From the IMG/VR virus record IMGVR_UViG_2711768070_000008, positions 1-19,628 of that record: DNA of 19,628 nt, one strand, 5' to 3'. Positions 1,952 through 19,628 of the stretch are shown piece after piece. Positions within the stretch are counted from its first letter, which is position 1; each line of letters opens with the position of its first letter. The stretch comes from a virus (lineage: Duplodnaviria > Heunggongvirae > Uroviricota > Caudoviricetes). A model generated the notes under the pieces. It was given only the letters and a program-made list of their open reading frames with translations. It was not told where the DNA came from and made no database searches. Position numbers and translations under genes: made by a program.

Positions 1952-1952
1952 A

Positions 1953-2720: not shown

Positions 2721-2769
2721 CCCGCAGCAATTCTACTTAACTCTCGCTTTACCGCAAACCGTTTTTACC

Positions 2770-2791
2770 CGATATGGGAATTCCCATATCG
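2770..2791. repeat. Perfect 22-bp palindrome CGATATGGGAATTCCCATATCG
   Basis: Read directly from the sequence; lies 9 bp beyond the stop of the 34-codon ORF; no U-tract on either strand. Confidence 0.8.
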
Positions 2792-2799
2792 TAATGAAT

Positions 2800-2904
2800 T
2801 CAGTTCCCTAGTCGATCCATCAAAAACACAACCAGGCAGTAAACGCCCACAACAGCAATAACAGCCAGAGCACCTTCCATTGCCAGTGAAATATCATCCG
2901 ACAT
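2800..2904 (-). CDS. Candidate 34-aa hydrophobic small protein (MSDDISLAMEGALAVIAVVGVYCLVVFLMDRLGN)
   Basis: ATG at 2904 preceded by AGGAGGG at 5-nt spacing; one predicted transmembrane helix; below the 60-aa cutoff of the ORF track. Confidence 0.45.
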   Translation of the reverse strand: MSDDISLAMEGALAVIAVVGVYCLVVFLMDRLGN

Positions 2905-3019
2905 ATTCCCTCCTTTGGTGTGAATCCCGGCGAACGTTTTTACCCCCACCGACAAATAACATATACTAAAAAATCAATAGCTATAGCAACGCCTGTAATT
3001 GCAAAGGCTTCAGGCCAGA

Positions 3020-3604
3020 TCATTGGCGCACCTCCTGCGGCGGTTCTGGTAGCGGCATCCAGTCGGTTACATTGCGGCTCTGTGTTTCGAAAAATTCATC
3101 ACCATTACGGACTACATCAAAAAACTCACCGTCTCGATATTGCGCATAAAGAACGAATGCGCCATCACATAAAATAATTACGTGCTGACCATCATCCGGC
3201 ATTCGCTCACTACAGCTTATCCAACCATCCGGAGTTACCGGATAGTTGGTTGACGTTTCCGAGATTTCCCGAAAATTATTGGTTGACGAACCCTTATTTT
3301 CCCGAAAGTTTCCAGCCTGAAGCATGGCGGCGCTGTCTGGCGGGGCAGCATATAGCGGCACGTATATTTCCGGTTCCTTATCAGCACCGGGTTGCTCTTC
3401 CAGTGAGAATGTCTTTCCGGTAAATCGATTCATATAAAGCACGGGCTCTGCTTCCAGCGAAGCCTGAGCAACAAGGGCCAGTGCTAAATCCAACTCAATT
3501 GCCTCGAGAGAATTTTTGAATACTGTCTGTTTTACTGCAAATTTCATCGCCTTTACATTTTCACTAACATGACTGATTAACTGCTCTTTTGTAAAAGTGG
3601 TCAT
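3020..3604 (-). CDS. DUF551-like phage protein
   Basis: C-terminal DGWISCSERMPDDG...DWMPLPEPP motif typical of DUF551; start moved to ATG at 3604 (AAGGAG RBS) from the GTG at 3664. Confidence 0.7.
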   Translation of the reverse strand: MTTFTKEQLISHVSENVKAMKFAVKQTVFKNSLEAIELDLALALVAQASLEAEPVLYMNRFTGKTFSLEEQPGADKEPEIYVPLYAAPPDSAAMLQAGNFRENKGSSTNNFREISETSTNYPVTPDGWISCSERMPDDGQHVIILCDGAFVLYAQYRDGEFFDVVRNGDEFFETQSRNVTDWMPLPEPPQEVRQ

Positions 3605-3660
3605 CTCATTCTCCTTTGATGCGAATGCCAGCGACAATTGAAGCCTGATAGCTAATTCAC

Positions 3661-4056
3661 TCACAGTACCGCCTCCTGAAAATTGCCCTGATAGAACGCC
3701 AGTACACGCAGCATAACTTCACTCTTCCGGCACTCGCCACAGATTATGTTCTGTTGTCTGTCGTAGCGGCGTATTTCTCCGTCTGGTAACTTTCGAATCA
3801 ATGTCTGGTCGGTTGCTTTCTCCGCTGCCTTACGCCATACGCGATACACCTGTTCTGATGTAAAAACACCGTATTTACCGGGCATGTATAAATCGCCACA
3901 AGCCAGTACATCCACAAGGCAACGTCTGACTGAATGCCAGCCTGCTCCCGTCGCTCTCTCCAGTTGTGATATCGTCATGCGTTCATTTTTGCGTACCAGC
4001 CCGATAATTCGGGCCTTCAGTTCTTCACGCTGTTCGTGTGTAAAAGGTTTCGCCAT
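3661..4056 (-). CDS. Hypothetical phage early protein, 131 aa
   Basis: ATG at 4056 with GGAGG RBS; fits the gap between flanking same-strand genes; no recognised family. Confidence 0.55.
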   Translation of the reverse strand: MAKPFTHEQREELKARIIGLVRKNERMTISQLERATGAGWHSVRRCLVDVLACGDLYMPGKYGVFTSEQVYRVWRKAAEKATDQTLIRKLPDGEIRRYDRQQNIICGECRKSEVMLRVLAFYQGNFQEAVL

Positions 4057-4071
4057 AAGCGCCTCCGGCTA

Positions 4072-4842
4072 TCACTTTTCCGATACAACACGGCGGGAAG
4101 AATCAGTAATCTGTCGAACAATATCCCGGTGCTTGTTCAGCTCCCGCAGCGCGGCGCAGACTCGCTCCCACTTCTGAACATCACTTTTCGCCCTGCGCAG
4201 CGCCAGGTTTGCCCTGCGCAGGGACGGAAAAATCAGCTCATCTGCTTGCGTTTCGGTAAACGATAGCAACGGCTGCACAATGTCCGCCACAGTTTCTGTT
4301 TTAATTTCTTCCTGTGTTGCGGCTTCCCGGACTGGTAACGCAGCACCTGCTGGCTGAGGAAAGGCCTTACCATCATTTTTCGTTACCGGCGCGGCTTTCG
4401 GATCTGCTGGTAAATTACCCCCCGACATGCAGTAACGAAATTTACCGTTCTGATTAACGCGTGCCAGCCGCCCCGTTGCGGTTACCACCGCCAGCGTGGA
4501 AGCAACCTTGCGAGTACTGACGCCGAACTTACCCGCCAGTTCCTCACACGTTTTAGCACCATCCTGACCGATAAACTCAACCATCATGTCTGCGGTAACT
4601 TTTGGAGCGACCTCTTCGGTTACCACATCCGGCGCTTCAGGTTGTAGTGCCTGCCCTTCGGTTACCCCGGCTTCACCTTCGACAGCCAGAAACCAGGTGT
4701 GACCCGTTTTATCAACAACGCCATTTTTTTTGAGTTCCCACAGTTCGTTAAGAACTTCTTCACGGCTGATATCAAGCCGCGCCGCCAGTTCAACAGAATT
4801 GGCTTTTCCCATCGCTTTCAGTGCATGCAATACAGTTTCCAT
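4072..4842 (-). CDS. Hypothetical phage early protein, 256 aa (possibly DUF1627-like with N-terminal winged helix)
   Basis: Operon context; N-terminal segment looks like a wHTH, followed by a low-complexity Ala/Pro/Glu-rich linker; family assignment is tentative. Confidence 0.65.
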   Translation of the reverse strand: METVLHALKAMGKANSVELAARLDISREEVLNELWELKKNGVVDKTGHTWFLAVEGEAGVTEGQALQPEAPDVVTEEVAPKVTADMMVEFIGQDGAKTCEELAGKFGVSTRKVASTLAVVTATGRLARVNQNGKFRYCMSGGNLPADPKAAPVTKNDGKAFPQPAGAALPVREAATQEEIKTETVADIVQPLLSFTETQADELIFPSLRRANLALRRAKSDVQKWERVCAALRELNKHRDIVRQITDSSRRVVSEK

Positions 4843-4867
4843 CGAAAATTTACCTCGTCAAAAATTC

Positions 4868-5608
4868 TCACATACCCTGACATCCAACGTTTGACCGCCA
4901 GCTCTCCCAGTTAAAATTCACCCAACGACCACCATTCATGGTCATACGGTCCATCACCCGATCTCCGAGGAGTGTGCTCATCGCTGCGTGATTCAGGTTC
5001 GTCAGCATTCCGACACTACGCATCGAAGCCGTTCTGCGGTCGACTATCTGGTTCAGCGTGACCTGCTCGTTGCGCGTATCCCGCTGCATGCCAATTTCAT
5101 CAAGGACCAGAAGGTCAACTCCACAAAGCTCCTGTAAAAATTTTTCCCCGGACTGGCCGTTGTCGTAGCCGTCATGCAACACGCTCATGACATCGGACAC
5201 GGTGACGATAATCACGCTTCTCCCCTTCGCCATCAGCCGATTGCCAATCGCTGCTGCCAGGTGATTTTTACCGGTACCAGGTTTACCGCTGAACACGAAG
5301 TTTGTACATCCGGTCATCAATTCATCGGCAATGGATTTCGCCTGGCTCAGAGCATGGCGCTGACCGTCGTTCTGCACCCGGTAGTTCCCGAATGAGCACT
5401 TCCTGTGAAGCGGCTGGATGCCCGCACGGTTCAGGATTTTTTCAACCCGCACCTGATGATTCAGGCGGTTAATCTCCTCGCTGCGTTTTCGTCCTTCAGC
5501 AAGTTGCCATTCCCGCCACTCCTCCACCGTCCGGTACGGTGGAACCGCCCCCTGTGGTGCAAGTCTGCGAATACGTTCAAGAACCCCAACTGCCGCAATG
5601 TTTTTCAT
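4868..5608 (-). CDS. DnaC/IstB-like AAA+ replication protein (helicase loader; Rac YdaV-like)
   Basis: Walker A GKPGTGKNHLAAAIG and Walker B LLVLDEIG; immediately downstream of the O-like gene. Confidence 0.9.
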   Translation of the reverse strand: MKNIAAVGVLERIRRLAPQGAVPPYRTVEEWREWQLAEGRKRSEEINRLNHQVRVEKILNRAGIQPLHRKCSFGNYRVQNDGQRHALSQAKSIADELMTGCTNFVFSGKPGTGKNHLAAAIGNRLMAKGRSVIIVTVSDVMSVLHDGYDNGQSGEKFLQELCGVDLLVLDEIGMQRDTRNEQVTLNQIVDRRTASMRSVGMLTNLNHAAMSTLLGDRVMDRMTMNGGRWVNFNWESWRSNVGCQGM

Positions 5609-5614
5609 GACACG

Positions 5615-6577
5615 TCACCCCCTGAATCCCGGCGGTATTTCAGTGTCCGGTTCAGAAATGTGATTCACGCAACGCTGCGCAGGCGAACGCCCCAGGCGGA
5701 TAACCAGTTCATCCCATTTTTCCCGGAGTTTTGCCGGACTCATGATGTTTTTTACCCAGAACGAATCCCGCTGGAGACGCCCAAACATTTCACAAATTTG
5801 TCTGTGAGTTCTGCCATCCAGCATCCGCATTGTGCGAACGTCATTGGCCCATGCTGTCCAGTTGGGTTCTTTCGGTCTAGTGATCTCGCCATCATAGCTG
5901 GCCGCCTGCTCGTAAAGACTCACGATTCGTCCCCAGATCCACTGTGCGCACACCAAATCTTCCTGACTTCCCCACTGGCGTTTTTTCGCACTGAACACAA
6001 CCGCGTCAGGGTGTCGGGTTAAAAAATCCTGTTCAGCCGTCTGCGGGTCCGGTTGCGAAGCGTCCGGACAAGAAGATCTTTTATCTGACGGATCAGGTTT
6101 TAATACTGACGGATCGGGGTCAATCATCGCCCCCCTAATCGGCAGTTTTTTATCAACAGTTGATCCATCAAAATTTGACGGGTCAACCGTTGAGGGGGCA
6201 ATATTTGACGGGTCAACTGTTAACTGGTCATTTTTTGCCGGGCTAATTTTTCTTTTCGGTTTATATGACTCACGCGCCGCCGCAGCTGCTGCTTCGAGTT
6301 TTTCCACATTAAGCCGATAGATATTGCTTACATTACGCCCACCGACCTTACGCTCTTCCTTCGTCAGCCAGCCCTCTTTCGCCAGTTCTGCAATAGCCGA
6401 TTTCACTGTGGATTCACTTCTTGCACCGATCTGACGCCGGATAGTTTCAATGGCAGGCCATGACACACCCTCGTCATTGCTGTAGTCTGCAAGACGGGCC
6501 ATAACCGCCACCCTGGATAAGATCATGCCGGTGAAGGCGCACCCTTCCCAGACAAGACCATGAAGCTTGCTGCTCAT
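5615..6577 (-). CDS. Replication initiator with lambda O-like architecture (Rac YdaU-like)
   Basis: N-terminal domain, then a repeat-containing linker (TVDPSN x2, DPDPS/KPDPSD) encoded by DNA iterons, then a C-terminal domain; start placed at ATG 6577 rather than GTG 6592. Confidence 0.75.
   Translation of the reverse strand: MSSKLHGLVWEGCAFTGMILSRVAVMARLADYSNDEGVSWPAIETIRRQIGARSESTVKSAIAELAKEGWLTKEERKVGGRNVSNIYRLNVEKLEAAAAAARESYKPKRKISPAKNDQLTVDPSNIAPSTVDPSNFDGSTVDKKLPIRGAMIDPDPSVLKPDPSDKRSSCPDASQPDPQTAEQDFLTRHPDAVVFSAKKRQWGSQEDLVCAQWIWGRIVSLYEQAASYDGEITRPKEPNWTAWANDVRTMRMLDGRTHRQICEMFGRLQRDSFWVKNIMSPAKLREKWDELVIRLGRSPAQRCVNHISEPDTEIPPGFRG
6085..6223. repeat. Iteron array (YTGACGGRTC-type direct repeats), putative prophage replication origin inside the O-like gene
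   Basis: CTGACGGATC at 6085 and 6106; TTGACGGGTCAAC at 6175 and 6205; palindrome ATCAACAGTTGAT at 6152-6164; adjacent AT-rich tract 6229-6272. Confidence 0.65.
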
Positions 6578-6599
6578 AAAACCCCCGAACACCGTGCTT

Positions 6600-7025
6600 T
6601 TAGTGCATCACCACAGCATTCCCTGCCGGGCCGCCGCGATTCATCTGGTCATACAAAACAACCGCTGACGCAACAAAATCGTCGACATCCTTCACCAGCC
6701 GATCCCGCCGTTCGACAATCTCCCGGTAATACTCAGAGCTGTGACTGCGCATACGGGCTACCAGCAGAGGCGGCATTGCCTTTTCGATCGCCGGTAACAG
6801 AGCCTGAATTTTTTCAACAGCATCAGGGGTGTCTTTATCCAGCCAACGGAAAATTTTCTGTGTATTACGGGCCAGGGCTTCCGGATGGCTGTCGTCGTAC
6901 AGTTCAGGGAACGTCATCCCCAGTTCGAAATAAGTCCGGGCTATTTCAGCTGCAGGAACTTTCTCACCATCAGGGTATGCCCAGGCATTCATCGCCATGC
7001 GGATGTGCTCATGTTTGATTTTCAT
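6600..7025 (-). CDS. YdaT-like protein (Rac-type, CII-position regulator/toxin family)
   Basis: 141 aa; N-terminus MKIKHEHI... as recalled for Rac YdaT; overlaps the cro-like gene by 17 nt. Confidence 0.7.
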   Translation of the reverse strand: MKIKHEHIRMAMNAWAYPDGEKVPAAEIARTYFELGMTFPELYDDSHPEALARNTQKIFRWLDKDTPDAVEKIQALLPAIEKAMPPLLVARMRSHSSEYYREIVERRDRLVKDVDDFVASAVVLYDQMNRGGPAGNAVVMH

Positions 7026-7332
7026 GAATCATTTGCCTCTTGATGCTTCGGGTATGATCGTTTTCGTCATTTGGTTGCTTCATCGACATATTCTGCGAAT
7101 AACATGACGAGCGTCGTAAGTATGTCCAATCAACATCAGGACGAAGTTCTTCACACAGGACACCACCTTTTGTTGCTCGTTCAATCGCAGGACATCTCTC
7201 AGCAGGCAACTGACGTACACCTTTGATCCATTGATTTACGCTTGGAGGAGATACACCTAAAAGCCTAGCCATTGCTGATTGCCCACCGACAACAGCACAA
7301 GCTCGTTTGAATGAATAGTTATCTTTTTTCAT
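7009..7332 (-). CDS. Cro-like HTH regulator (YdaS-like)
   Basis: Start at ATG 7332 (GGAG RBS) rather than track start 7353; HTH region ...QSAMARLLGVSPPSVNQWIKG...; divergent from the repressor gene. Confidence 0.75.
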   Translation of the reverse strand: MKKDNYSFKRACAVVGGQSAMARLLGVSPPSVNQWIKGVRQLPAERCPAIERATKGGVLCEELRPDVDWTYLRRSSCYSQNMSMKQPNDENDHTRSIKRQMIHENQT

Positions 7333-7359
7333 CGAATGAACTCCAAAAAACACGCAACA

Positions 7360-7427
7360 ATATTAGGCTTAGCCTAATACAATTATCAATAGGCTATGCC
7401 TAACACATCGAGAGTAGGGATTGCCTA
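7360..7427. promoter_or_regulatory. Right operator/promoter region: three TAGGC-N3-GCCTA operators overlapping a leftward promoter
   Basis: Operators at 7364-7376, 7390-7402 and 7415-7427 (25-26 bp centre to centre); minus-strand -35 TTGATA (7389..7384) and -10 TAATAT (7365..7360) with an 18-bp spacer. Confidence 0.6.
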
Positions 7428-7456
7428 ACGCGATGCGCATAGGAGACTATTAAGCA

Positions 7457-7933
7457 ATGCTTAGTGGTAAAGACTTAGGCCGAGCGATAGAGCAGGCCAT
7501 TAACAAAAAAATTGCATCAGGAGCCGTCAAATCAAAGGCGGAAATCGCACGTCATTTCAAAGTCCAACCACCATCAATCCATGACTGGATTAAGAAAGGT
7601 TCGATAAGTAAAGACAAACTTCCAGAACTATGGCGTTTCTTTTCTGATGTGGTTGGTCCAGAGCATTGGGGGCTTAACGAATACCCCATACCAACCCCAT
7701 CCACTTCAGATACAAAAAGTGAACTTTTAGACATAAACAGCCTTTATCAAGCCGCCTCTGATGAAAAAAGAGCAATTGTGGCTTTCCTCTTATCTGGAAA
7801 TGCTACGGAGCCTAGTTGGGTTGATCATGACGTTCGCGCCTACATTGCCGCAATGGAAATGAAGGTAGCTAACTATCTGAAAAATCAAGAATCAAAACGG
7901 AAAAGCCAGAACATCACCAAGACAGGAACTTAA
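7457..7933 (+). CDS. Prophage repressor (CI-equivalent; RacR-like)
   Basis: 158 aa; N-terminal HTH (SKAEIARHFKVQPPSIHDWIK); AGGAG RBS; flanked on both sides by operator clusters. Confidence 0.8.
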   Translation: MLSGKDLGRAIEQAINKKIASGAVKSKAEIARHFKVQPPSIHDWIKKGSISKDKLPELWRFFSDVVGPEHWGLNEYPIPTPSTSDTKSELLDINSLYQAASDEKRAIVAFLLSGNATEPSWVDHDVRAYIAAMEMKVANYLKNQESKRKSQNITKTGT

Positions 7934-8028
7934 ACTTATATGGTCCGACGGGAAATTCCTAGTTCCCGTTAGTTAACTCCTACTACCTCTCCCACAAACC
8001 ATCACCTATTAGGTCGCGCCCAAATTAT

Positions 8029-8070
8029 TAGGCATAGCCTATTGACAAGTAATTAGGCATTTCCTATAGT
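8029..8070 (+). promoter_or_regulatory. Left operator/promoter (PL-equivalent): sigma70 promoter overlapped by operators
   Basis: TTGACA (8042-8047), 17-bp spacer, TATAGT (8065-8070); operators TAGGCATAGCCTA (8029-8041) and TAGGCATTTCCTA (8054-8066). Confidence 0.65.
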
Positions 8071-8251
8071 TTTCCCATACCAACCCATCCCGTCCCACAC
8101 AATACAGGGCAATACCTCGAGTTACCAGGCAGTGGTCAGGGGTTAAGTAGCCAGCCCGAGGCGTAAGAACATGACGGCAGGGTTCAACTTTAATAACTAT
8201 GCAGCAGGTTTTTGTTCCGCTACCCCGGCGTTAAGGGGAAATGAGGTCAGC

Positions 8252-8404
8252 ATGGATACTATCGATCTTGGCAACAGCGAATCTCTGGTATGTGGCGTGT
8301 TCCCCAACCAGGACGGTACGTTCACCGCGATGACGTATACCAAAAGCAAAACGTTTAAAACTGAAGCTGGCGCGCGTCGCTGGTTAACCAGAAACACTGA
8401 CTGA
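8252..8404 (+). CDS. DUF1391 small protein (YdfA/YdaF-like), 50 aa
   Basis: Internal ATG at 8252 with GAGG RBS; first gene after the PL-like promoter; family assignment from memory. Confidence 0.6.
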   Translation: MDTIDLGNSESLVCGVFPNQDGTFTAMTYTKSKTFKTEAGARRWLTRNTD

Positions 8405-8415
8405 TGAGGTTGACG

Positions 8416-8790
8416 ATGGAATTTAAAGATTTACCAGTACCATTCCAGGAAATGGCATCGAATGTGGTTCGCTCTCAACTGGCGACTCTTGACCTGAGTA
8501 CCGTAGAAAAAGAAACCATCGATACTATATCCGGTAACGTGCGTCGTGCCTTTATCGGTCTGTACGAAGAGAAGCAGCTCTCTGATAACCAGGATTTACA
8601 TGAAAAATACTTCATGGAATTAATGGACATCATTAATAAAGGATTTGGCTTGTTAATGAAAAAGAAAGGGATTCGAATAGCTCCCCTTGAAAATCATTTT
8701 ACAGCGAGCAGTATTAATTCCTGTGATTTAAAGCATCACACATCCGATGGGAAAGTTGAATCAAACAACAAAATATCAATTAATCATTAA
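8416..8790 (+). CDS. Hypothetical protein, 124 aa
   Basis: ATG 8416 with GAGG RBS (start 8404 also possible); in the position of ydfB/ydfC upstream of dicF. Confidence 0.55.
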   Translation: MEFKDLPVPFQEMASNVVRSQLATLDLSTVEKETIDTISGNVRRAFIGLYEEKQLSDNQDLHEKYFMELMDIINKGFGLLMKKKGIRIAPLENHFTASSINSCDLKHHTSDGKVESNNKISINH

Positions 8791-9094
8791 TTTATTCACA
8801 GGTGAGGTAGAGTGCGTGCGCCGGACACGGATAAGAATCCGGCACTGACAGTTTACTGAAAAGGATATATCCCTGAAAAGTCAGGGCATAACACGAAAGC
8901 GCCCGGCGAAGTTAGTCTCTCTGTATAGGTCGTCGTTAAATTTAATTCGATCGTGCGCTTCCGGTTGTGGCAATCCGCGAAATGGCGCGGCGGTAAGTAT
9001 GGCGGGGTTATTCCTTCCCCGTTGAGGACACCGGGTTGTCAGGTTGACCATACGCTTAAGTGACAACCCCGCTGCAACGCCCTCTGTTATCAAT

Positions 9095-9147
9095 TTTCTG
9101 GTGACGTTTGGCGGTATCAGTTTTACTCCGTGACTGCTCTGCCGCCC
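9095..9147 (+). ncRNA. dicF: DicF small RNA (ftsZ-targeting), 53 nt, with terminator U-tail to 9152
   Basis: Sequence TTTCTGGTGACGTTTGGCGGTATCAGTTTTACTCCGTGACTGCTCTGCCGCCC matches the DicF sequence as recalled; GGCGG...GCCGCC stem then TTTTT; directly upstream of dicB. Confidence 0.7.
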
Positions 9148-9321
9148 TTTTTAAAGTGAATTTTGTGATGCGGTGAATGCGGCTGAGCGCACGCGGAACA
9201 GTTAAAACCAAAAACAGTGTTATGGGTGGATTCTCTGTATCCGGCGTTAATTGTTAACTGGTTAACGTCACCTGGAGGCACCAGGCACCGCATCACAAAA
9301 TTCATTGTTGAGGACGCGATA

Positions 9322-9510
9322 ATGGAAACGTTATTACCAAACGTTAATACGTCTGAAGGTTGTTTTGAAATTGGTGTCACTATCAGTAACCCTGTATTTA
9401 CTGAAGATGCCATTAACAAGAGAAAACACGAACGGGAGCTATTAAATAAAATATGCATTCTTTCAATGCTGGCCCGTTTACGTCCGATACAAAAAGGATG
9501 CTGGCAATGA
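9322..9510 (+). CDS. dicB: Cell division inhibitor DicB, 62 aa
   Basis: METLLPNVNTSEGCFEIGVTISNPVFTEDAINKRK... recognised as DicB; GAGGA RBS; track ORF 9217..9510 is an N-terminal over-extension. Confidence 0.8.
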   Translation: METLLPNVNTSEGCFEIGVTISNPVFTEDAINKRKHERELLNKICILSMLARLRPIQKGCWQ

Positions 9511-9698
9511 ATACAGCATTTGCACTTGTTCTGACAGTTTTTCTTGTTTCCGGAGAGCCAGTTGATATTGCAGTCAGCGTTCACAGGACAATGCAGGAGT
9601 GTGTGACTGCAGCAACCGAACAGAAAATTCCCGGTAACTGTTACCCGGTCGATAAAGTTATTCACCAGGATAATATCGAAATCCCGGCAGGTCTTTAA
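9507..9698 (+). CDS. ydfD: YdfD-like small protein with hydrophobic N-terminal segment, 63 aa
   Basis: ATGA overlap with the dicB stop; AAGGA RBS; N-terminus MNTAFALVLTVFLVSG. Confidence 0.6.
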   Translation: MNTAFALVLTVFLVSGEPVDIAVSVHRTMQECVTAATEQKIPGNCYPVDKVIHQDNIEIPAGL

Positions 9699-9790
9699 AA
9701 CAGTTCCGTAATAAACATCCGATTTCATTCTTATATGCCAGCAATGGCAGGGATTTGTTCACCCTTAAATCTGTAATGAGGTAAAACAAA

Positions 9791-12262
9791 ATGAGTAAAG
9801 TCTTTATTTGCGCCGCCATTCCGGACGAACAGGCAATAAAGGAAGAAGGTGCAGTCGCTGTAGCCACTGCCATTGAAGCTGGCGACGAACGCCGTGCTCG
9901 AGCAAAATTTCACTGGCAGTTCCTGGAACATTATCCGGCTGCTCAGGACTGCGCTTATAAATTTATTGTCTGCGAGGATAAACCTGGCATACCCCGCCCT
10001 GCCCTCGATTCATGGGATGCTGAATATATGCAGGAAAACCGCTGGGATGAGGAGTCTGCTTCTTTTGTCCCGGTTGAGACTGAATCCGATCCGATGAACG
10101 TCACTTTTGACAAGCTGGCCCCTGAAGTACAGAACGCTGTCATGGTTAAGTTCGACACATGTGAAAACATCACCGTTGATATGGTGATTAGCGCACAGGA
10201 ATTGTTGCAGGAAGACATGGCAACATTCGACGGACATATCGTTGAAGCGTTGATGAAAATGCCAGAAGTTAACGCCATGTATCCGGAGCTTAAGCTGCAT
10301 GCCATCGGGTGGGTTAAGCATAAATGTAAGCCTGGTGCCAAATGGCCCGAAATTCAGGCAGAGATGCGCATCTGGAAAAAACGTCGCGAAGGTGAACGCA
10401 AGGAAACCGGAAAATACACGTCTGTTGTTGATCTCGCCCGCGCCAGAGTCAATCAACAGCACACTGAAAATTCAACAGGAAAAATCAGCCTGGTCATTGC
10501 TGCCATTCATCGCGAATACAAGCAGACATGGAAAACACTGGATGACGAACTGGCCTACGCTCTCTGGCCTGGTGATGTGGATGCCGGAAACATTGACGGC
10601 AGCATCCATCGCTGGGCAAAAAATGAAGTTATCGACAACGACCGCGAAGACTGGAAGCGTATCTCGGCATCAATGCGCAAACAGCCTGATGCCCTTCGCT
10701 ACGACCGCCAGACTATTTTTGGCCTTGTCCGTGAACGTCCGATCGACATTCACAAAGACCCTGTGGCACTGAACAAATACATTACTGAATACCTGACTAC
10801 AAAGGGCGTGTTTGAAGATGAAGGAACAAATCAGAGCGCAACTGATACTCTCTCGTCGTCAGTACCAGAAACTGATGCAGTGGAAACGGCAATTCCGGAC
10901 AACGAAAAAACCGAATGCAAAGTGGAAGTCGAACCATCTGTAGAGCGTGAGGGGCCGTTCTACTTCCTCTTCACCGACAAGGATGGCGAAAAATACGGTC
11001 GCGCAAACAAACTTTCTGGTCTGGATAAGGCACTGGCTGCCGGGGCTACTGAAATCACGAAAGAAGAATATTTCGCCCGCAAAAACAGTACATACTCAGG
11101 TTCACAACAAAATACTGGTGCATCTGACACGACCGCACAACCAGAGCCGGTAAAAGTTACCGCTGACGAAGTAAACAAAATTATGCAGGCAGCCAATATC
11201 AGCCAGCCTGACGCCGATAAGTTGCTTGCTGCCTCTCGCGGAGAATTTGTTGCAGGGATTAGCGACCCGAATGATCCGAAATGGGTTAAGGGGATCCAGA
11301 CCCGCGATTCTGTAAACCAGAACCAGCATGAATCGGAACGGAACTACCAAAAAGCGGAACAAAACAGCCCAAATGCGTTACAAAACGAGCCAGAAACGAA
11401 ACAGCCTGAACCAGTGGCGCAACAGGAAGTGGAAAAAGTCTGCACCGCCTGCGGTCAGACCGGCGGCGGCAACTGCCCTGATTGTGGCGCAGTGATGGGC
11501 GACGCAACATACCAGGAAACATTCGATGAAGAGTATCAGGTTGAAGTTCAGGAAGATGATCCGGAGAAAATGGAAGGCGCTGAACATCCACACAAGGAGA
11601 ACACTGGCGGCAATCAGCATCACGATAGCGATAATGAAACTGGCGAGACGGCAGATCACTCAATTAAGGTGAACGGTCATCAAGAAATCACATCCACCAG
11701 CAGGACGTGTGACCATCTAATGATCGACCTTGAAACCATGGGAAAAAATCCTGATGCCCCGATCATCTCAATAGGTGCAATATTTTTCGATCCGCAAACC
11801 GGAGATATGGGACCGGAATTTAGTAAGACTATCGATCTGGAAACTGCTGGCGGAGTCATTGATCGGGACACCATTAAATGGTGGCTTAAGCAATCACGCG
11901 AAGCGCAATCTGCCATTATGACCGATGAAATCCCGTTAGATGATGCACTGTTACAATTGCGGGAATTTATCGACGAAAACTCCGGTGAATTTTTTGTTCA
12001 GGTCTGGGGAAATGGAGCCAACTTCGACAACACGATTTTGCGCCGTTCATACGAACGGCAGGGGATCCCCTGCCCGTGGCGTTACTACAACGATCGCGAT
12101 GTACGCACAATCGTTGAGCTGGGGAAAGCCATAGACTTCGATGCCAGAACGGCTATTCCATTCGAAGGTGAGCGCCATAATGCACTTGATGACGCCCGTT
12201 ACCAGGCAAAATACGTTTCAGTTATCTGGCAAAAACTGATCCCGAGTCAGGCTGATTTTTAA
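9791..12262 (+). CDS. Large prophage exonuclease, 823 aa: RecE-like central segment, CxxC-x8-CxxC zinc ribbon, C-terminal DnaQ-like DEDDh 3'-5' exonuclease domain
   Basis: GAGGT RBS; segment [31 protein letters not shown] recalled from Rac RecE; C-terminal motifs [16 protein letters not shown] and HNALDDA; [16 protein letters not shown]. Confidence 0.8.
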
Positions 12263-12320
12263 TGTTCAACCCTAATTGCCGCTAACCGTATATAGTTAGC
12301 GGCGGTTATGAGATATAGCT

Positions 12321-12524
12321 ATGAGCAACTTATTTTTAACCGAAGATGAATTGCTAATATTAACGGGCTGCAAATATGCAAGCCACCAGCGAAAATGGTT
12401 AACGGAAAACGGGCTTCCGTTCTATACCAATCGTAGTGGCAAACCGATTGTCAGCCGGGATCTATTTACCTGCAATAAAACTTTACCACCACGCGAGGTA
12501 GAGCCGAATTTTGGTGCAATCTAA
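12321..12524 (+). CDS. xis: Excisionase-like protein (Xis)
   Basis: 67 aa, immediately upstream of int with a 1-nt overlap; resembles small phage excisionases. Confidence 0.6.
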   Translation: MSNLFLTEDELLILTGCKYASHQRKWLTENGLPFYTNRSGKPIVSRDLFTCNKTLPPREVEPNFGAI

Positions 12525-13549
12525 TGGGAAGACGAAGGAAAAATCCTGAACACGAAAAACTACCTCCAAATGTATACCCAAATAAATATAGTTATGTATG
12601 GAAACCAACATCCAGAGAATCTGTCACACTAACCGCCATCAAGGATGGTTTAGCTGCTTTATGGAAAAAGTATGAGGAAACTGTAAATAATCGCGATCGT
12701 GCAATGACATTCGGTCGCTTGTGGGAAAAATTCCTCGCCAGCGCCTATTACAGTGACCTCAGTCCAAGAACACAAAAAGATTATCTGCAACATCAAAAAA
12801 AGTTGCTTGCCGTATTCGGTAAGGTGCCGGCAGATTCCATAAAACCAGAACACATCCGTCGATACATGGACAAGAGAGGGGAACAGAGTAAAACGCAAGC
12901 CAACCATGAAAAAAGCAGTATGTCCCGCGTTTACAGTTGGGGGTATGAGCGAGGGTACGTGAAGGCTAACCCATGTGCAGGTGTAAGTAAATTCAAGGCC
13001 AAAAACCGCGAACGATATGTAACCGACAAAGAATACCAGGCAGTATTAAGCGTTGCACCTCTTCCTGTTTTTATCGCAATGGAAATTGCCTATCTGTGTG
13101 CAGCGAGGGTTTCCGATGTGTTATCGCTGAAATGGGAGCAGATTGGAAACGACGGAATCTTTATCCAGCAAGGGAAAACAGGAAAAAAACAGATAAAAGC
13201 ATGGAGTCCACGATTACAGGCGGCGATCGAAAAAGCAAAACAGTTACCAACATCCGCCTATGTAATCAGTAATCAATACGGCAACCGATATATGTACAAA
13301 GGCTTTAACGAAATGTGGGTAGAAGCAAGAAATCGCGCAGGCAAAATTTCAGGTATTTTAACCGACTTCACCTTTCATGATCTGAAGGCGAAAGGAATTT
13401 CAGACTATGAAGGAAGCAGTCGGGATAAGCAACTTTTCTCTGGTCACAAAACCGAGGGGCAAGTGCTAATCTATGACAGGAAGGTTAAAGTTTCACCGAC
13501 ACTTGATGTCCCGTTACCTGAAAATATTCCAAGAAAATATTCCAAGTAA
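12524..13549 (+). CDS. int: Lambda-family tyrosine integrase
   Basis: 341 aa; C-terminal catalytic region with R...HDLKAKG...Y (LIYDRK); ends 52 bp from the tRNA-Ser 3' end. Confidence 0.9.
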   Translation: MGRRRKNPEHEKLPPNVYPNKYSYVWKPTSRESVTLTAIKDGLAALWKKYEETVNNRDRAMTFGRLWEKFLASAYYSDLSPRTQKDYLQHQKKLLAVFGKVPADSIKPEHIRRYMDKRGEQSKTQANHEKSSMSRVYSWGYERGYVKANPCAGVSKFKAKNRERYVTDKEYQAVLSVAPLPVFIAMEIAYLCAARVSDVLSLKWEQIGNDGIFIQQGKTGKKQIKAWSPRLQAAIEKAKQLPTSAYVISNQYGNRYMYKGFNEMWVEARNRAGKISGILTDFTFHDLKAKGISDYEGSSRDKQLFSGHKTEGQVLIYDRKVKVSPTLDVPLPENIPRKYSK

Positions 13550-13601
13550 TTCCAAGTGTGATTTTTGTCACTGACTTAATGATGTATAAGTGATTGAATT
13601 T

Positions 13602-13691
13602 TGGCGGAGAGAGGGGGATTTGAACCCCCGGTGGAGTTGCCCCCACTCCGGTTTTCGAGACCGGTCCGTTCAGCCGCTCCGGCATCTCTCC
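13602..13691 (-). tRNA. serU: tRNA-Ser (anticodon CGA)
   Basis: 90 nt; GGAGAGA acceptor stem, long variable arm, GGTTCAAATCC T-loop, CCA end; anticodon loop CU-CGA-AA. Confidence 0.9.
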
Positions 13692-13784
13692 GTTCAGATG
13701 GTTGCCATGATGCCAGGAAATTTGGCATTTTAACAGTCCCTGTCCGTGCAATTTTGTTCAAGTGACGAGTTTGCGAGCAAAACG

Positions 13785-14582
13785 ATGATTAAGTGGCCCT
13801 GGAAAGTACAAGAATCAGCACATCAAACTGCCCTTCCCTGGCAGGAAGCACTATCGATCCCCCTTTTAACGGGTCTGACGGAACAGGAACAAAGCAAATT
13901 AGTCACTCTTGCCGAACGTTTTTTACAGCAAAAGCGGCTTGTTCCTTTACAGGGCTTTGAACTGGATTCATTAAGAAGCTGCCGGATAGCACTTCTATTT
14001 TGCCTACCCGTTCTGGAGTTAGGACTGGAATGGCTGGATGGTTTTCATGAAGTCTTAATTTATCCTGCGCCATTTGTGGTCGATGATGAATGGGAAGACG
14101 ATATCGGTCTGGTGCATAACCAACGTATTGTTCAGTCAGGTCAGAGCTGGCAGCAAGGGCCTATCGTTTTGAACTGGTTGGATATACAAGATTCTTTTGA
14201 TGCATCTGGTTTTAACCTGATTATTCATGAAGTCGCTCATAAGCTGGACACCCGTAACGGCGATCGCGCCAGCGGAGTTCCCTTTATTTCGTTGCGTGAG
14301 GTTGCTGGCTGGGAACACGATCTTCATGCTGCAATGAACAACATTCAGGAAGAAATCGAATTAGTTGGTGAGAATGCGGCGAGCATTGATGCTTATGCTG
14401 CCAGTGATCCTGCTGAATGTTTTGCCGTACTTTCTGAATATTTCTTTAGCGCCCCAGAACTTTTTGCTCCTCGTTTCCCTTCATTGTGGCAACATTTCTG
14501 TCAATTTTATCAACAAGATCCTTTGCAGAGACTGCATCACGCTAATGATACAGACTCGTTTTCGGCGACGAATGTTCATTAA
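13785..14582 (+). CDS. mtfA: MtfA (Mlc titration factor A) zinc-dependent peptidase
   Basis: Recognised sequence beginning [10 protein letters not shown]; HEVAHK zinc-binding motif; track ORF 13746 start is an over-extension. Confidence 0.9.
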
Positions 14583-14635
14583 TTAACAACTTTGCAGATT
14601 AATTAACCAATTGAAATGGCTTATGAAATTTAGTG

Positions 14636-14664
14636 TTGACAGACAAGGTACCGCTAAGTAATAT
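14636..14664 (+). promoter_or_regulatory. tRNA-Asn promoter
   Basis: TTGACA (14636-14641), 17-bp spacer, TAATAT (14659-14664), GC-rich discriminator GCGCTCC, AT-rich upstream region. Confidence 0.6.
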
Positions 14665-14682
14665 GCGCTCCGTTCACACGAT

Positions 14683-14758
14683 TCCTCTGTAGTTCAGTCG
14701 GTAGAACGGCGGACTGTTAATCCGTATGTCACTGGTTCGAGTCCAGTCAGAGGAGCCA
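14683..14758 (+). tRNA. asnT: tRNA-Asn (anticodon GTT)
   Basis: 76 nt canonical E. coli tRNA-Asn sequence; the asnT name comes only from its position next to mtfA. Confidence 0.95.
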
Positions 14759-14765
14759 TTTTCAA

Positions 14766-14795
14766 GAAAGCAGACGTTCACTAACGTCTGCTTTC
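14766..14795 (+). terminator. Stem-loop downstream of tRNA-Asn
   Basis: GAAAGCAGACGTT-CACT-AACGTCTGCTTTC perfect 13-bp stem; following tract is only moderately T-rich. Confidence 0.55.
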
Positions 14796-14938
14796 TGCAT
14801 TTCTATCAATTGGTTATCCCCTCTCAGTCGTTCACCCTCGTTCACTAAAAACCACTCGAAGCCATATCATTTTGATGGTAAAAATGCTGGTAATGCTGGT
14901 TCGATTTCCCTTTTACCAACAAATGAGGGGGTGTTTTC

Positions 14939-16213
14939 ATGTCACTGACTGATATTAAAGCAAAAAATGCAAAACCCCTTGAGAAGGAATACAAGCTTAC
15001 TGATGGCTTTGGTATGTTCCTTCGTGTTACCCCTAAAGGTTCGAAATACTGGCAAATGGCTTACCGCTTCGAAGGGAAACAAAAACTCTTCTCTATTGGT
15101 GTTTACCCTGCAGTTTCTCTTTCTGACGCAAGACAACGCCGTGACGAGGCCAGAAGGCTTCTGGCTCAGGGTATTGACCCTAATGCAAAGAAACAGGCAG
15201 AGGTTAAAGAGCTTAAAGCCAAACGTGATAATACACGCTCCTTCAGAACAGTAGCCAAAGCGTGGTTCTCCACGAAAACAAAATGGTCTGATGATTATGG
15301 CGATGCCGTATGGAAGCGCCTTGAAACTTATGTCTTCCCGGTAATCGGTGACAAAGATGTTGCCGAACTGGATACGGGTGATCTGCTGGTTCCGGTGAAA
15401 AAAGTTGAGGCTCTTGGTTATCTTGAAGTTGCCATGCGCATTCAACAATACATTACGGCAATCCTGCGTCATGCCGTCCAGCAAAAGCTGATACGCCATA
15501 ACCCAGCCTATGATATGGAAGGTGCAGTTCAGAAACCACAAACTGAACACCGCCCTGCACTTGAGCTGGAAGAAATACCCCAGCTACTGAACAAAATTGC
15601 CGAATACAAAGGCCGCAGGTTAACCATACTGGCAATACAGCTCAATCTGATGATTTTCATTCGTTCCAGTGAGCTTCGTTTCGCTCGCTGGTCTGAAATT
15701 GATTTCAAAAGTAAGTTATGGGTGATACCCGAACAGCGTGAAGCAATTGAAAACGTCAAACATTCGACTCGTGGTGCCAAAATGAAGCGTAAGCACTTCG
15801 TTCCCCTTTGTAAGCAAGCTATGAGGATACTAAAAGAGATCCGACAACTGACTTATGAAGAAGGCCATGATGATGGATTAATCTTCACTGGCTGTTATGA
15901 CTCGTTTAAACCCATGAGTGAAAACACCATCAACAAAGCCCTGCGTAATATGGGATATAACACGAAGCAGGACATCTGTGGACACGGTTTCCGCACTCTG
16001 GCCTGTAGTGCCTTAATTGAGTCCGGGCTATGGTCAGAAGACGCTGTAGAGCTTCAAATGAGCCATAAGGAAAGCAACAGCGTCCGTGCTGCTTATACCC
16101 ACAAGGCTAAACACCTTGATCAACGCCGTCTGATGCTCCAATGGTGGGCTGACTACCTTGATGCAAGCAGAAACGGTATGGTAAGGCCGTTTGAGTTTGC
16201 TTCAAATAAATAA
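14939..16213 (+). CDS. int: P4-type tyrosine integrase
   Basis: 424 aa; N-terminus MSLTDIKAKNAKP...YKLTDGFGMFLRVTPKGSKYW typical of P4-like integrases; C-terminal HGFRTL...Y catalytic motifs; GAGGGGG RBS. Confidence 0.9.
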   Translation: MSLTDIKAKNAKPLEKEYKLTDGFGMFLRVTPKGSKYWQMAYRFEGKQKLFSIGVYPAVSLSDARQRRDEARRLLAQGIDPNAKKQAEVKELKAKRDNTRSFRTVAKAWFSTKTKWSDDYGDAVWKRLETYVFPVIGDKDVAELDTGDLLVPVKKVEALGYLEVAMRIQQYITAILRHAVQQKLIRHNPAYDMEGAVQKPQTEHRPALELEEIPQLLNKIAEYKGRRLTILAIQLNLMIFIRSSELRFARWSEIDFKSKLWVIPEQREAIENVKHSTRGAKMKRKHFVPLCKQAMRILKEIRQLTYEEGHDDGLIFTGCYDSFKPMSENTINKALRNMGYNTKQDICGHGFRTLACSALIESGLWSEDAVELQMSHKESNSVRAAYTHKAKHLDQRRLMLQWWADYLDASRNGMVRPFEFASNK

Positions 16214-16216
16214 AGG

Positions 16217-16238
16217 GAAAGGCCGTTCGCGGCCTTTC
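16217..16238. terminator. Hairpin between convergent int and orphan gene (possible bidirectional terminator)
   Basis: GAAAGGCCG-TTCG-CGGCCTTTC. Confidence 0.5.
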
Positions 16239-16259
16239 AACTTCATGCTTAATTACACT

Positions 16260-17651
16260 CTATGCTGAATATGATACTGAATCTTTCTCTATCACTAAAC
16301 CAGCGATTTTTTCCAGCATTATTTCCCAGAGTGCGTATTTTCTTTTGTGCTCAATAAACAGGGATTTTAAATACTCTTCTGTAGAAGGGATTTTTTCAGT
16401 CCATGTAATATCTTTACTGTAATCAATGCTTTTTTTCATATCAGATGCTGCATAGGTGTAGTATTTACTCTGAGAACGACTGATACTGTCCTCTGCCAGA
16501 ACTCTACGGAGCAGAGTTGCAGAACATGCATAACCATGCCTGTAAAGTTCACTCGATAAAGTACGAACAAAAGAACCGCGTAATAAAGACATCATCTCTG
16601 CGATTTCATTTTCACTCGCATTCATGACTTCAGAATCAAGTTTTCCATAACTATCCGTCCCGGACAAGAAAAGAATAACAAACGGAAAGCCTTTGTTCTT
16701 TGCTATGCCAGAGAACAAATCCAGTGAGTCATTATTTTTCTCTACCCGATTATAGATATTATAAAAAATAACATCACACCTGTTCTTAAATCCGTCTATA
16801 CAAATTGTTTTTGCCTGCTGAATCTCGCCTTCTTCAATCAACGCCAGAGCCAACACCTCAGTCCATTTATCACGAAGCCCTGCCTGATCAACTGATTTAT
16901 CTTCTTTGATTTTATTGAGAACCTGAATGGCTTCCTCAGTGCACAGTTCATCAACCAGCAACTCAGCAAACTTAATGATGTATTCTGGCTGGTTCAGTTT
17001 TCTTTTCTCAAAGCATTGCCTGATGAAATCAACATCCCTGATATACAGACTTAACTCAACAGCATAATTAACATTACCTGTCTTAAGAAGACTTTCCCTT
17101 AAAGCACGAATAACATTGTATCCAAGCTCTTTTTTATACTTATCAAAAATATCAAAGTTAAAATATACATCACCTTTAAGCACGGAAAGTATTTTATCCG
17201 CTATAACATCAATGCTTTTATCTTTTTGTAGGGACAGGGATTTTAACCATGTTTCGACAGCACCATTATAATAGTCCATCCATGATCCATCTGATGTATC
17301 AGCAATTTCGCTGATTTTATCAAATGAGAGCAGTAAATCATGGCAAAACGCCTCGGTTTTTTCAGGCAGCGTTGATACCGTCTTTTCAAGTGGAAATATG
17401 ACATTCCTGTATAGCCCCTCAAAAAAAACCGCTGCTTCATAATAATCATAAAAGCGTTTTGTTTTAATTACCCTTTTGTATTCAGCCTCAGCCTTTTTCA
17501 GTGATTCTTCTGGAGTTAACAGATATTTATTAATAATAAAGGATTTTGCCTGACCATTATTCTCTGCAATATCACAAATTATTTGCATGAGTTGATCGGC
17601 AGGCATTTCCTTGAGTAAAGCAAGTTGTTTCTTGTTCAGTTTAGCCATCAT
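16260..17651 (-). CDS. Orphan protein of unknown function (~463 aa; 484 aa from the farthest ATG), AT-rich, predicted largely helical
   Basis: Long ORF with no recognisable catalytic motifs; start placed at ATG 17651 or 17648 (AGGA upstream) rather than 17714 (no RBS); divergent from the mod gene. Confidence 0.7.
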   Translation of the reverse strand: MMAKLNKKQLALLKEMPADQLMQIICDIAENNGQAKSFIINKYLLTPEESLKKAEAEYKRVIKTKRFYDYYEAAVFFEGLYRNVIFPLEKTVSTLPEKTEAFCHDLLLSFDKISEIADTSDGSWMDYYNGAVETWLKSLSLQKDKSIDVIADKILSVLKGDVYFNFDIFDKYKKELGYNVIRALRESLLKTGNVNYAVELSLYIRDVDFIRQCFEKRKLNQPEYIIKFAELLVDELCTEEAIQVLNKIKEDKSVDQAGLRDKWTEVLALALIEEGEIQQAKTICIDGFKNRCDVIFYNIYNRVEKNNDSLDLFSGIAKNKGFPFVILFLSGTDSYGKLDSEVMNASENEIAEMMSLLRGSFVRTLSSELYRHGYACSATLLRRVLAEDSISRSQSKYYTYAASDMKKSIDYSKDITWTEKIPSTEEYLKSLFIEHKRKYALWEIMLEKIAGLVIEKDSVSYSA

Positions 17652-17842
17652 CACATCCTGATAATGTTTGGTAGACGCATAAAAGCTAATTGTACTAATA
17701 CAAGGACAGGACATTCAATAAATGCATTAACATAATGATTTAAAAAGAAATCTGTAGCACACTGTTCATTGATGAAATGCACTATTTACCGTAAAATATC
17801 CCCCATCACACAGTAACCTGATACAGATACGTGGAATGGTCA

Positions 17843-19573
17843 ATGAACAAACTTTCGCCTGAAATGCCCGAACTGCAATCAATGAATATCACTGCCGATA
17901 ACATCACCAAACTTAAATCATTGTTTCCTGAAGCCTTTAATGAAAACGGCATTGATTTTGACGTTTTAAAACAGCTTTTGGGTGAAAATGTAGACGAAAA
18001 AGAAGAACGCTATGGCCTGAACTGGCATGGTAAGCGTCAGGCTCGTCAGCTTGCTCTTACCCCTTCCCGTGGCACCTTACGCCCATGTAAAGATGAAAGC
18101 GTTGATTGGGATAACACCAAGAACCTCATGATCGAGGGTGATAACCTTGAAGTATTGAAGCTTCTTCAAAAAAGTTATGCCGGAAAAGTTAAGCTTATTT
18201 ATATTGATCCACCTTACAATACCGGTAAAGATTTTGTTTATTCTGATAACTTCCAAGATAACATGAAAAATTATCTTGAAATGACAGGACAAACAGAAGA
18301 TGGGGTACGAATCACCACAAACGCAGAAACCAGTGGACGTTACCATACTGATTGGTTAAATATGATTTACCCACGTTTAAAACTTGCAAGAAACTTGTTG
18401 AAAGAAGATGGAGTTATTTTCATTTCCATTGATGATGCTGAAGTTGATAATTTAAAAAAAGTTTGCTCGGAAATCTTTGGTGAAGAGAACTTTGTTGCTA
18501 ATATTGTATGGCAAAAAAAATACTCACCACAAAATGATGCCACATATTTTAGTGATATGCATGATCATATTTTAGTATATGCAAAGCAACGGAAGAATTC
18601 AAAAAATGATTCAAATGGTTGGAACATAGATTTTCTACCAAGATCAGACGAACAAAATGCAGCGTATAAAAACCCCGACAATGACCCTCGTGGAGTTTGG
18701 AAGTCTGTAGATTTATCAGTCAAAACTTATTCCAAGGCTAATGATTACTCAATTACCACACCATCAGGACGTATTGTAACTCCTCCCGCCAGTAGATGCT
18801 GGCAGGTTTCTGAAAAACGTTTTGCAGAATTGTGTAAAGAAAATAAAATTTGGTTTGGAGAAAATGGTAATAATGTTCCATCAATCAAAAGATTCCTGAC
18901 TGAGGTCCAAGATGGTGTTGTTCCTACAACATGGTGGTCATATAAAGAATGTGGCCATAATCAAGAGGCCAAACAGGAACTAAAAAAACTCATGGAGGGA
19001 GAATCTGTATTCTTTGACACGCCTAAACCATTGAGATTATTAGATAGAATATTACATTTAGCAACAACCAATGATAAAAATAGTATTATCCTAGATTTTT
19101 TCGCTGGGTCAGGTACCACGGCTCACGCAACTTTGAATAAAAATATTGCTGACAGTGGTTCACGCCGATATATTGCTGTGCAATTACCTGAAAAAATAGA
19201 TGATGAAAAATACCATACAATATCAGAACTAACCAAAGAACGCCTCCGCCGCGCGGGTAAAAAGGTTCGTGAAGACAATCCAGAGTGGAAAGGTGACGTT
19301 GGTTTTCGTGTTTTCAAACTCGATACATCTAATATCCGTCCGTGGGAAGCCACAGCAGAAACCCTTTCAGAACAGATTGATGCCTATGTAAGCCCAATCC
19401 TTGAAGGCCGTAGTGAAGAAGATTTGCTCACAGAGTTAATGCTAAAGCGTGGCATTGACTTGAGTGTTAACATTGAAACCCGTCAGTTTGATGGATTAAC
19501 CGTTTCTTGTGTTGACGGTGGCAAATTGTTTACCTGCTTTGCTAAGGAAGGTGCGAACAAGTTCCTGATATGA
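17843..19573 (+). CDS. mod: Type III restriction-modification methyltransferase (Mod), N6-adenine, beta class
   Basis: Motif IV IYIDPPYNTGKDF precedes motif I DFFAGSGTTAHA; ATG 17843 preferred over the GTG at 17831. Confidence 0.85.
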   Translation: MNKLSPEMPELQSMNITADNITKLKSLFPEAFNENGIDFDVLKQLLGENVDEKEERYGLNWHGKRQARQLALTPSRGTLRPCKDESVDWDNTKNLMIEGDNLEVLKLLQKSYAGKVKLIYIDPPYNTGKDFVYSDNFQDNMKNYLEMTGQTEDGVRITTNAETSGRYHTDWLNMIYPRLKLARNLLKEDGVIFISIDDAEVDNLKKVCSEIFGEENFVANIVWQKKYSPQNDATYFSDMHDHILVYAKQRKNSKNDSNGWNIDFLPRSDEQNAAYKNPDNDPRGVWKSVDLSVKTYSKANDYSITTPSGRIVTPPASRCWQVSEKRFAELCKENKIWFGENGNNVPSIKRFLTEVQDGVVPTTWWSYKECGHNQEAKQELKKLMEGESVFFDTPKPLRLLDRILHLATTNDKNSIILDFFAGSGTTAHATLNKNIADSGSRRYIAVQLPEKIDDEKYHTISELTKERLRRAGKKVREDNPEWKGDVGFRVFKLDTSNIRPWEATAETLSEQIDAYVSPILEGRSEEDLLTELMLKRGIDLSVNIETRQFDGLTVSCVDGGKLFTCFAKEGANKFLI

Positions 19574-19603
19574 GATCATCATATTCATCCGGAGCGCATC
19601 CCA

Positions 19604-19628
19604 GAGGGACATCATGAGCCATCAACTC
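19604..19628 (+). CDS. Possible start of Type III restriction subunit (Res), first 8 codons only
   Basis: ATG 30 nt after the mod stop with GAGGGA RBS; expected mod-res order; far too short to confirm. Confidence 0.3.

Follow-up and report, generated by a model that had tools for sequence, protein, structure and literature searches.

Islands inserted at asparagine tRNA genes have been described as a family of their own, named Enterobacteriaceae-associated ROD21-like islands, or EARL (Pina-Iturbe et al. 2018, PMC6035254). They are defined by insertion at an Asn-tRNA gene, repeats of 24-37 bp, a P4-like integrase, a recombination directionality factor (RDF) together with a conserved gene whose function is unknown, TraD and a MOBQ relaxase; H-NS, SpnT, TIR and restriction-modification (R-M) of Type III are optional cargo (PMC6035254). 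As the family lacks a type IV secretion system, its members are mobilisable and not self-transmissible, and the island of E. coli SF-088 is listed in Table 1 of the same paper (PMC6035254). Islands with a disrupted methylase gene were already flagged in the paper on ICEKp258.2 (PMC10763509), and for the Type III enzyme EcoP15I it has been reported that the C-terminal domain of Mod (aa 539-644) makes extensive contacts with Res and that a dimer of Mod is by itself a competent methyltransferase (PMC4490356). Here we consider a stretch of 19,628 nucleotides (IMG/VR record IMGVR_UViG_2711768070_000008, positions 1 to 19,628), called the window in what follows, and in particular its last part, which a first-pass annotation had described as a foreign island at tRNA-Asn carrying a Type III R-M system. 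We find it very probable that 14735-19628 is the left arm of an integrative mobilisable island of the EARL family, whose mod gene was truncated by an insertion sequence (IS), ISKpn26, and which belongs to a decayed lineage.

The evidence for the truncation comes from the mod gene itself. Starting from the ATG at 17843 on the plus strand, the reading frame stays open up to 19573 and encodes a product of 576 aa. The native part of the gene (17843-19545) corresponds to codons 1-568 of 628. Motif IV (DPPY) is found at residue 122 and motif I (FAGSG) at residue 420, with the target-recognition region between them, which is the beta-class order that the first-pass annotation had correctly recognized. 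The product matches PF01555 (E 7e-38) and the PADLOC profile MTase_III (E 7e-233), and, among Type III Mods of solved structure, it is homologous to 6K0W (E 6e-77) and EcoP15I (E 4e-69); the PADLOC profile, however, is covered only up to position 573 of 621. In intact alleles of the same island Mod is 628 aa long, and the Mod of the window is identical to that of the intact relative IH5 at 568 of 569 residues, after which the two diverge. Homology to the intact island copies ends at 19545, the alignment showing TTTGCTAA followed by ACAAATCCC in the intact alleles and TTTGCTAA followed by GGAAGGTGCGAACAAG in the window. The protein of the window is therefore made of 568 native residues to which the IS (19546-19573) adds EGANKFLI and a stop codon.

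The DNA from 19546 to 19628, where the contig ends, belongs to ISKpn26 (IS5 family, plus strand) and forms its left end, with a terminal repeat that starts with GGAAGGTGCGAACAAG. The features of ISKpn26 and of the IS5 family are all found, namely the terminal inverted repeat GGAAGGTGCGAA, a DDE_Tnp_1 transposase and a YTAR target. This segment is 100% identical to copies in thousands of plasmid records, several of them annotated as ISKpn26 family transposase, and also to the first 83 nt of a full IS copy of 1196 bp in a sister assembly, L006 (GCA_040813315.1), where the transposase carries the domains DDE_Tnp_1 and DUF772. IS5-family elements prefer YTAR targets, and the alignment with the intact alleles places such a target, CTAA (19542-19545, plus strand), exactly at the junction, 186 bp short of the end of mod. 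Mod is thus short because ISKpn26 inserted after the CTAA ending at 19545. The remark of the first-pass annotation that Mod is short for a Type III enzyme, at about 576 aa, was right as to the length, but the protein is not naturally short. A phase-variable mod (phasevarion) was also considered and rejected, since no tandem or simple-sequence repeats were found in mod (17843-19545).

In the intact island copies Res, of 986 aa, is encoded directly downstream of mod and carries the domains ResIII, DEAD and RE_endonuc (PADLOC REase_III, 1135 bits; NCBIfam PRK15483, E 1e-114). In the window, the DNA that follows Mod is instead the start of an IS5-family transposase, at the ATG at 19614 (MSHQL...). 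The reading frame that had been expected to encode Res thus has the identity that the first-pass annotation itself had named as speaking against its proposal, and the claim that the island carries a Type III R-M system does not hold for this copy: mod is cut by the IS after codon 568, the IS follows, and in L006 res is deleted.

The region beyond the window could be followed in the sister assembly. The exact 576-aa fusion protein is encoded on 17 contigs that we read, coming from independent assemblies and including a 5.29-Mb contig (L006) and a metagenome scaffold; among them only L006, which differs from the window by 9 mismatches in 11,786 positions, is contiguous across the IS. In L006 the 1196-bp ISKpn26 is followed directly by the distal island genes, and 13,774 bp are missing relative to IH5. 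The missing stretch comprises the final 186 bp of mod together with the genes res, pilV, traD and mobQ, the pilin gene, two hypothetical genes and the radical S-adenosylmethionine (radical-SAM) genes. The sequences that flank the IS at mod, CTAA to its left and TAAG to its right, form no matching target duplication, which indicates an IS-associated deletion and not a simple insertion. It is likely that the same 13.8-kb deletion is present in the genome from which the window comes, given how close the sister assembly is. Exact-match scans of genome and metagenome collections with the left junction or with either possible right junction found no occurrence, which for the right junctions speaks neither for nor against the deletion, and the junction between mod and the IS is present in none of the 5426 complete E. 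coli genomes.

Some further observations concern the same lineage. Of the nine positions at which the window and L006 differ, eight fall close together in 1.3 kb (window 10639-11983) of an exonuclease gene of the neighbouring prophage, as would be expected from a small patch of recombination and not from scattered mutation. L006 also has a second ISKpn26 (17727-18922 of that locus), identical to the first, which interrupts a coiA-family gene with a clean CTAG duplication and shows that the IS has recently expanded in this lineage. The identical junction between mod and ISKpn26 was seen at two more loci: at asnT, on a contig that lacks the serU prophage (L007, 5743-11786), and on a metagenome scaffold (L010, 6833-11753) that is 99.9% identical to the window and where the island adjoins yeeO at asnU. 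Either the truncated island moved after the IS event or the directly repeated tRNA-Asn genes recombined; should the island have moved between asnT and asnU, the decayed island would still be able to excise and reintegrate.

Several points weigh against the interpretation of the window as part of a decayed island. The window ends 83 bp into the IS and the deletion is shown only in the sister assembly, so that the rest of mod and res could follow after a simple insertion; L006 itself was read to shortly past the H-NS gene, short of attR and of the RDF gene. Furthermore, when the last 161 aa of the intact Mod were compared with the Protein Data Bank (PDB), no meaningful match was obtained, nor any similarity to the C-terminal domain of EcoP15I.

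The first of these points is the basis of the only alternative to which we assign an appreciable, though small, probability. Here ISKpn26 would simply have inserted, the IS would be followed by the other 186 bp of mod and by res, pil, traD and mobQ genes that are intact, and the deletion of L006 would have arisen later, in a sub-lineage; R-M would then be disrupted by the truncated Mod and by a polar effect on res, and not deleted. The window, which stops inside the IS, is compatible with this, its left flank CTAA is a proper YTAR target, and other strains do have an IS in the same mod with target duplications and an intact res, as EC21Z-137 does (codon 417, CTAG). Nevertheless, the sole assembly that is contiguous across the same junction, and that differs by only 9 of 11,786 bases, has the deletion, and for this reason we regard a simple insertion as rather unlikely. 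An artefact of assembly, with a chimeric contig end at a repeat, deserves much less credit. It is true that short-read contigs often end in IS copies and that the contig of the window ends 83 bp into one, but the exact fusion product recurs on 17 contigs of independent assemblies, the 5.29-Mb contig and the metagenome scaffold included, and the junction lies at a canonical CTAA target; we consider an artefact very improbable.

Finally, the frame open from 17843 to 19573 and the presence of all methyltransferase motifs could be taken as signs of an intact Type III R-M system in which Mod, at about 576 aa, is naturally short and res starts just past the window. This would require that the last 8 codons and the stop, which lie inside the terminal repeat of ISKpn26, belong to mod, whereas the intact alleles, 100% identical up to the junction, continue for 60 more codons, and the next ATG (19614) is that of an IS5-family transposase and not of Res. 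A naturally short Mod with res beyond the window is refuted by the identity of 19546-19628 as an IS and by the alignments with intact alleles, and we give it practically no probability.

We therefore return to the truncated and decayed EARL-family island. Its identity, its att core, the junction with the IS, the truncation and, in the sister genome, the deletion are established, and the history may be reconstructed as follows. The P4-type integrase of the island recombined the att core of 24 bp with the tRNA-Asn 3' end at asnT, restoring an intact tRNA followed by the hairpin of the island. The cargo beside the integrase is the spnT/DUF6880 gene and a Type III R-M operon, mod and then res, which in intact copies encodes a beta-class N6-adenine methyltransferase of 628 aa and a helicase-nuclease of 986 aa. 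ISKpn26 landed at CTAA, 186 bp before the end of mod, leaving the 576-aa product, and in the sister assembly an IS-associated loss of 13,774 bp took away the 3' end of mod and the genes res, pilV and traD, together with those for the pilin and the MobQ relaxase and the two radical-SAM genes.

What the truncated gene can still do may be considered in the light of EcoP15I. As judged from its sequence, the truncated Mod retains all the methyltransferase motifs and the recognition region. The truncation takes some 60 residues from the C-terminal end; by their position, and by analogy with EcoP15I, these would make up approximately the distal half of the C-terminal domain that docks Res there; the docking role of the lost segment is assigned by position only, because the C-terminal region has no sequence similarity to that of EcoP15I. 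Type III Res depends on Mod to recognize DNA, and here res itself is probably missing, and for these two reasons we infer that restriction is abolished in this lineage. What remains is most likely a decayed island with an orphan, truncated mod and not a working R-M system, and the truncated Mod would be at best an orphan methylase. It is conceivable, although we think it doubtful, that the truncated Mod, now that res is lost, is still expressed and still methylates its target, in which case the locus would offer a snapshot of a defence system becoming an orphan epigenetic methyltransferase. The island would also no longer be mobilisable by conjugation, even though its integrase is intact.

Concerning the position of the island, the window is the entire contig CYFZ01000068.1 (GCA_001283325.1), whose end falls inside the IS, and corresponds to the serU-mtfA-asnT locus of Escherichia coli, an origin also backed by megablast. 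The integration target is a tRNA-Asn (GTT) found by ARAGORN at 14683-14758 on the plus strand, the asnT copy that adjoins mtfA. The last 24 bp of the tRNA, GTTCGAGTCCAGTCAGAGGAGCCA (14735-14758, plus strand), are the attL core, and at the other end of intact islands the same sequence is found again as attR. The true left boundary of the island is this att core inside the tRNA and not 14759, and the tRNA itself is intact, having been rebuilt by the attL of the island. At the asnT, asnU and asnV copies alike, homology among islands begins inside or just after tRNA-Asn. In the intact relative FDAARGOS_1248 the identical 24-mer adjoins ldtA about 28.5 kb away, and the native asnV terminator is located beyond attR; the intact island thus measures about 28.5 kb and is bounded by 24-bp repeats. 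The expectation of the first-pass annotation that the 3' end of the tRNA is repeated downstream is borne out by these relatives, and only the left boundary lies in the window, as had been proposed.

Just past the tRNA, at 14765-14796 on the plus strand, there is a hairpin with a 14-bp stem (free energy, dG, -21.9 kcal/mol; z -6.6; no shuffled sequence folds as well), which accompanies the island at the asnT, asnU and asnV copies. This hairpin is part of the island rather than the native terminator of the tRNA, because in FDAARGOS_1248 the native asnV terminator sits past attR. From its sequence it is likely to serve as a substitute terminator for the tRNA transcript, although its U-tract (GCATTTCTAT) is weak. 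An integrase directly after the tRNA 3' end and its terminator hairpin had been reported; both integrase and strong hairpin are present, but the hairpin belongs to the island.

The integrase gene (14939-16213, plus strand) is intact and encodes a P4-type tyrosine integrase of 424 aa with the domains Arm-DNA-bind_3 (PF13356, E 5e-28), Phage_int_M (PF22022, E 5e-25) and Phage_integrase (PF00589, E 7e-21). It also matches NCBIfam PRK09692 (E 1.5e-74) and is 97% identical in aa sequence to its counterpart in the EARL island of E. coli SF-088. At 14883-14900, 39 bp upstream of its start, we observed a perfect tandem duplication of AATGCTGGT, which could be an arm-type site, a regulatory site or a product of chance. 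A GC-rich, terminator-like hairpin (16217-16238) separates the integrase gene from spnT, which is convergent to it.

The spnT homologue (16260-17648, minus strand) encodes a SpnT/DUF6880 protein of 462 aa from the RefSeq start, the open reading frame reaching 17714. RefSeq labels this product either 'SpnT protein' or 'DUF6880 family protein'; the Pfam match to DUF6880 (E 3.4e-12) is confined to the last 73 residues, and no match was found in NCBIfam or PADLOC. SpnT is named as cargo of EARL islands (PMC6035254), in which spnT is variable, and the literature on SpnT reports only overexpression and deletion phenotypes. Between spnT and mod lies an AT-rich divergent intergenic region (17649-17842), a candidate promoter region; a promoter scan of it gave only consensus-level matches, no more than in shuffled sequence, and was not used.

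The composition of the region agrees with a horizontal origin. The GC content is 48.9% in the prophage part (1-13500) and 44.8% from mtfA to the tRNA, versus 39.7% in the island part (14759-19545) and 37.4% in its cargo (16214-19545). The spnT/DUF6880 gene (16260-17714) is, at 36% GC, among the most AT-rich of the region, and the GC content at third codon positions (GC3) is 0.34 for spnT and 0.31 for mod. The earlier description of a foreign island integrated at tRNA-Asn, with a P4-type integrase and a cargo more AT-rich than the prophage and core genes, was therefore correct: the island is AT-rich and horizontally acquired.

The remainder of the window is occupied by a prophage and by a short piece of core genome. 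The prophage (1 to about 13550) is lambdoid, and its 341-aa integrase (12524-13549) abuts the 3' end of the tRNA-Ser gene serU (CGA; 13602-13691, minus strand; ARAGORN). Among its genes are those for DicB, DUF1482 and DUF4224 and one for an 823-aa YdfE-like 3'-5' exonuclease (9791-12262). Upstream of tRNA-Asn, between the two tRNA genes, lies mtfA (13746-14582), identified by its Peptidase_M90 domain. The core islet serU-mtfA-asnT is only about 1.1 kb long and is sandwiched between two mobile elements, because the prophage sits at serU and the island at asnT.

Left ends 98.5-100% identical to that of the present island are found at asnT, asnU or asnV in 103 of the 5426 complete E. coli genomes, while the mod-res family occurs in 193 of them, always on the chromosome. 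In the intact relatives FDAARGOS_1248 and IH5 the order of genes is int, spnT, mod (628 aa), res (986 aa), pilV, a type 4 pilin gene and traD, followed by the MobQ relaxase gene, two radical-SAM genes and the genes for RepL, CoiA and H-NS, a small helix-turn-helix (HTH) gene and a DUF6387 gene. The IH5 island used for comparison is NZ_CP168949.1, 4157174-4177036. In the intact relatives the RDF and the conserved gene of about 0.85 kb of EARL islands are represented at the distal end by the 72-aa HTH gene and the DUF6387 gene; in the present lineage this end lies outside the window and past the part covered by L006. The mod alleles of these islands are mosaic: in the two that we compared (L002, 18169-20055, and L005, 25489-27465) residues 1-200 and about 455-628 are near-identical and the central recognition region is unrelated, for an overall identity of 62%. 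Such mosaic alleles would imply, judging from the sequences, different methylation specificities on otherwise similar islands.

Disruption of mod or res by an IS is not restricted to this lineage, as IS1, IS5 or IS66 was found in one of these genes in about 6 of 60 sampled E. coli records. In EC21Z-137 (L004, 9185-12271) an independent ISKpn26 lies in codon 417 of mod, just before motif I, in the opposite orientation, with a CTAG duplication and an intact res. In CT29 a match of the same layout as in EC21Z-137 probably has the same insertion at codon 417. From a practical point of view, where Mod seems short at the end of a contig, truncation by an IS is the reading to adopt, and this strain should not be credited with a working Type III restriction barrier. 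Our result is a modest data point on the loss of restriction barriers in IS-rich lineages, of little importance beyond correct annotation.

Turning to the comparison with known systems, the inserted element agrees with ISKpn26 in its 83-bp end (100% identical), in the full copy of L006 (1196 bp, with a 326-aa DDE transposase) and in the YTAR site CTAA; it departs from a regular insertion in that the L006 copy at mod has no matching target duplication. Mod resembles EcoP15I (4ZCF, PMC4490356) and the Helicobacter Mod 6K0W in homology and in the beta-class order, and the intact relatives also share with EcoP15I the adjacent mod and res genes and a Res with a ResIII/DEAD helicase and a C-terminal endonuclease domain. 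Unlike EcoP15I, however, Mod has a divergent recognition region and C-terminal domain, and here its C-terminal 60 aa are gone and res is absent from the window.

With ICEKp258.2 of Klebsiella pneumoniae ST258 the island shares the published att repeat, GTTCGAGTCCAGTCAGAGGAGCCA[A] (PMC10763509), and its intact copies share the integrase, spnT, Type III R-M, the type IV pilus genes, traD and the MOBQ relaxase, the comparison covering the repeat and the gene content; the host species is different. The closest known systems are the EARL islands, in particular that of SF-088 and the Type III R-M-positive clade. The island of SF-088 differs in that it lacks spnT and has a Mod of 658 aa with a different central recognition region, 62% identical overall and with near-identical ends. 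The present island nevertheless has, like those of EARL, the Asn-tRNA site, a P4-related integrase beside the tRNA and a GC content of about 37%; of the flanking repeats of 24-37 bp it shows the attL copy of 24 bp, attR of this lineage lying beyond both the window and L006, and its intact copies add pilV, the pilin gene, traD, the MOBQ relaxase, H-NS, an RDF-like HTH gene, a distal gene of about 0.85 kb and the cargo of SpnT and Type III R-M. It differs in its ISKpn26-truncated mod and, in the sister assembly, also in the loss of res, the pil genes, traD and mobQ, as a decayed member would; the absence of TraD and of the MOBQ relaxase there marks it as a degenerate member and not as a non-member. 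The island is a member of the EARL family, ROD21-like and ICEKp258.2-like, of a kind already described, and the finding is real but ordinary, since the families, the att site, the cargo of Type III R-M and SpnT and the disruption of methylase genes have all been published before.

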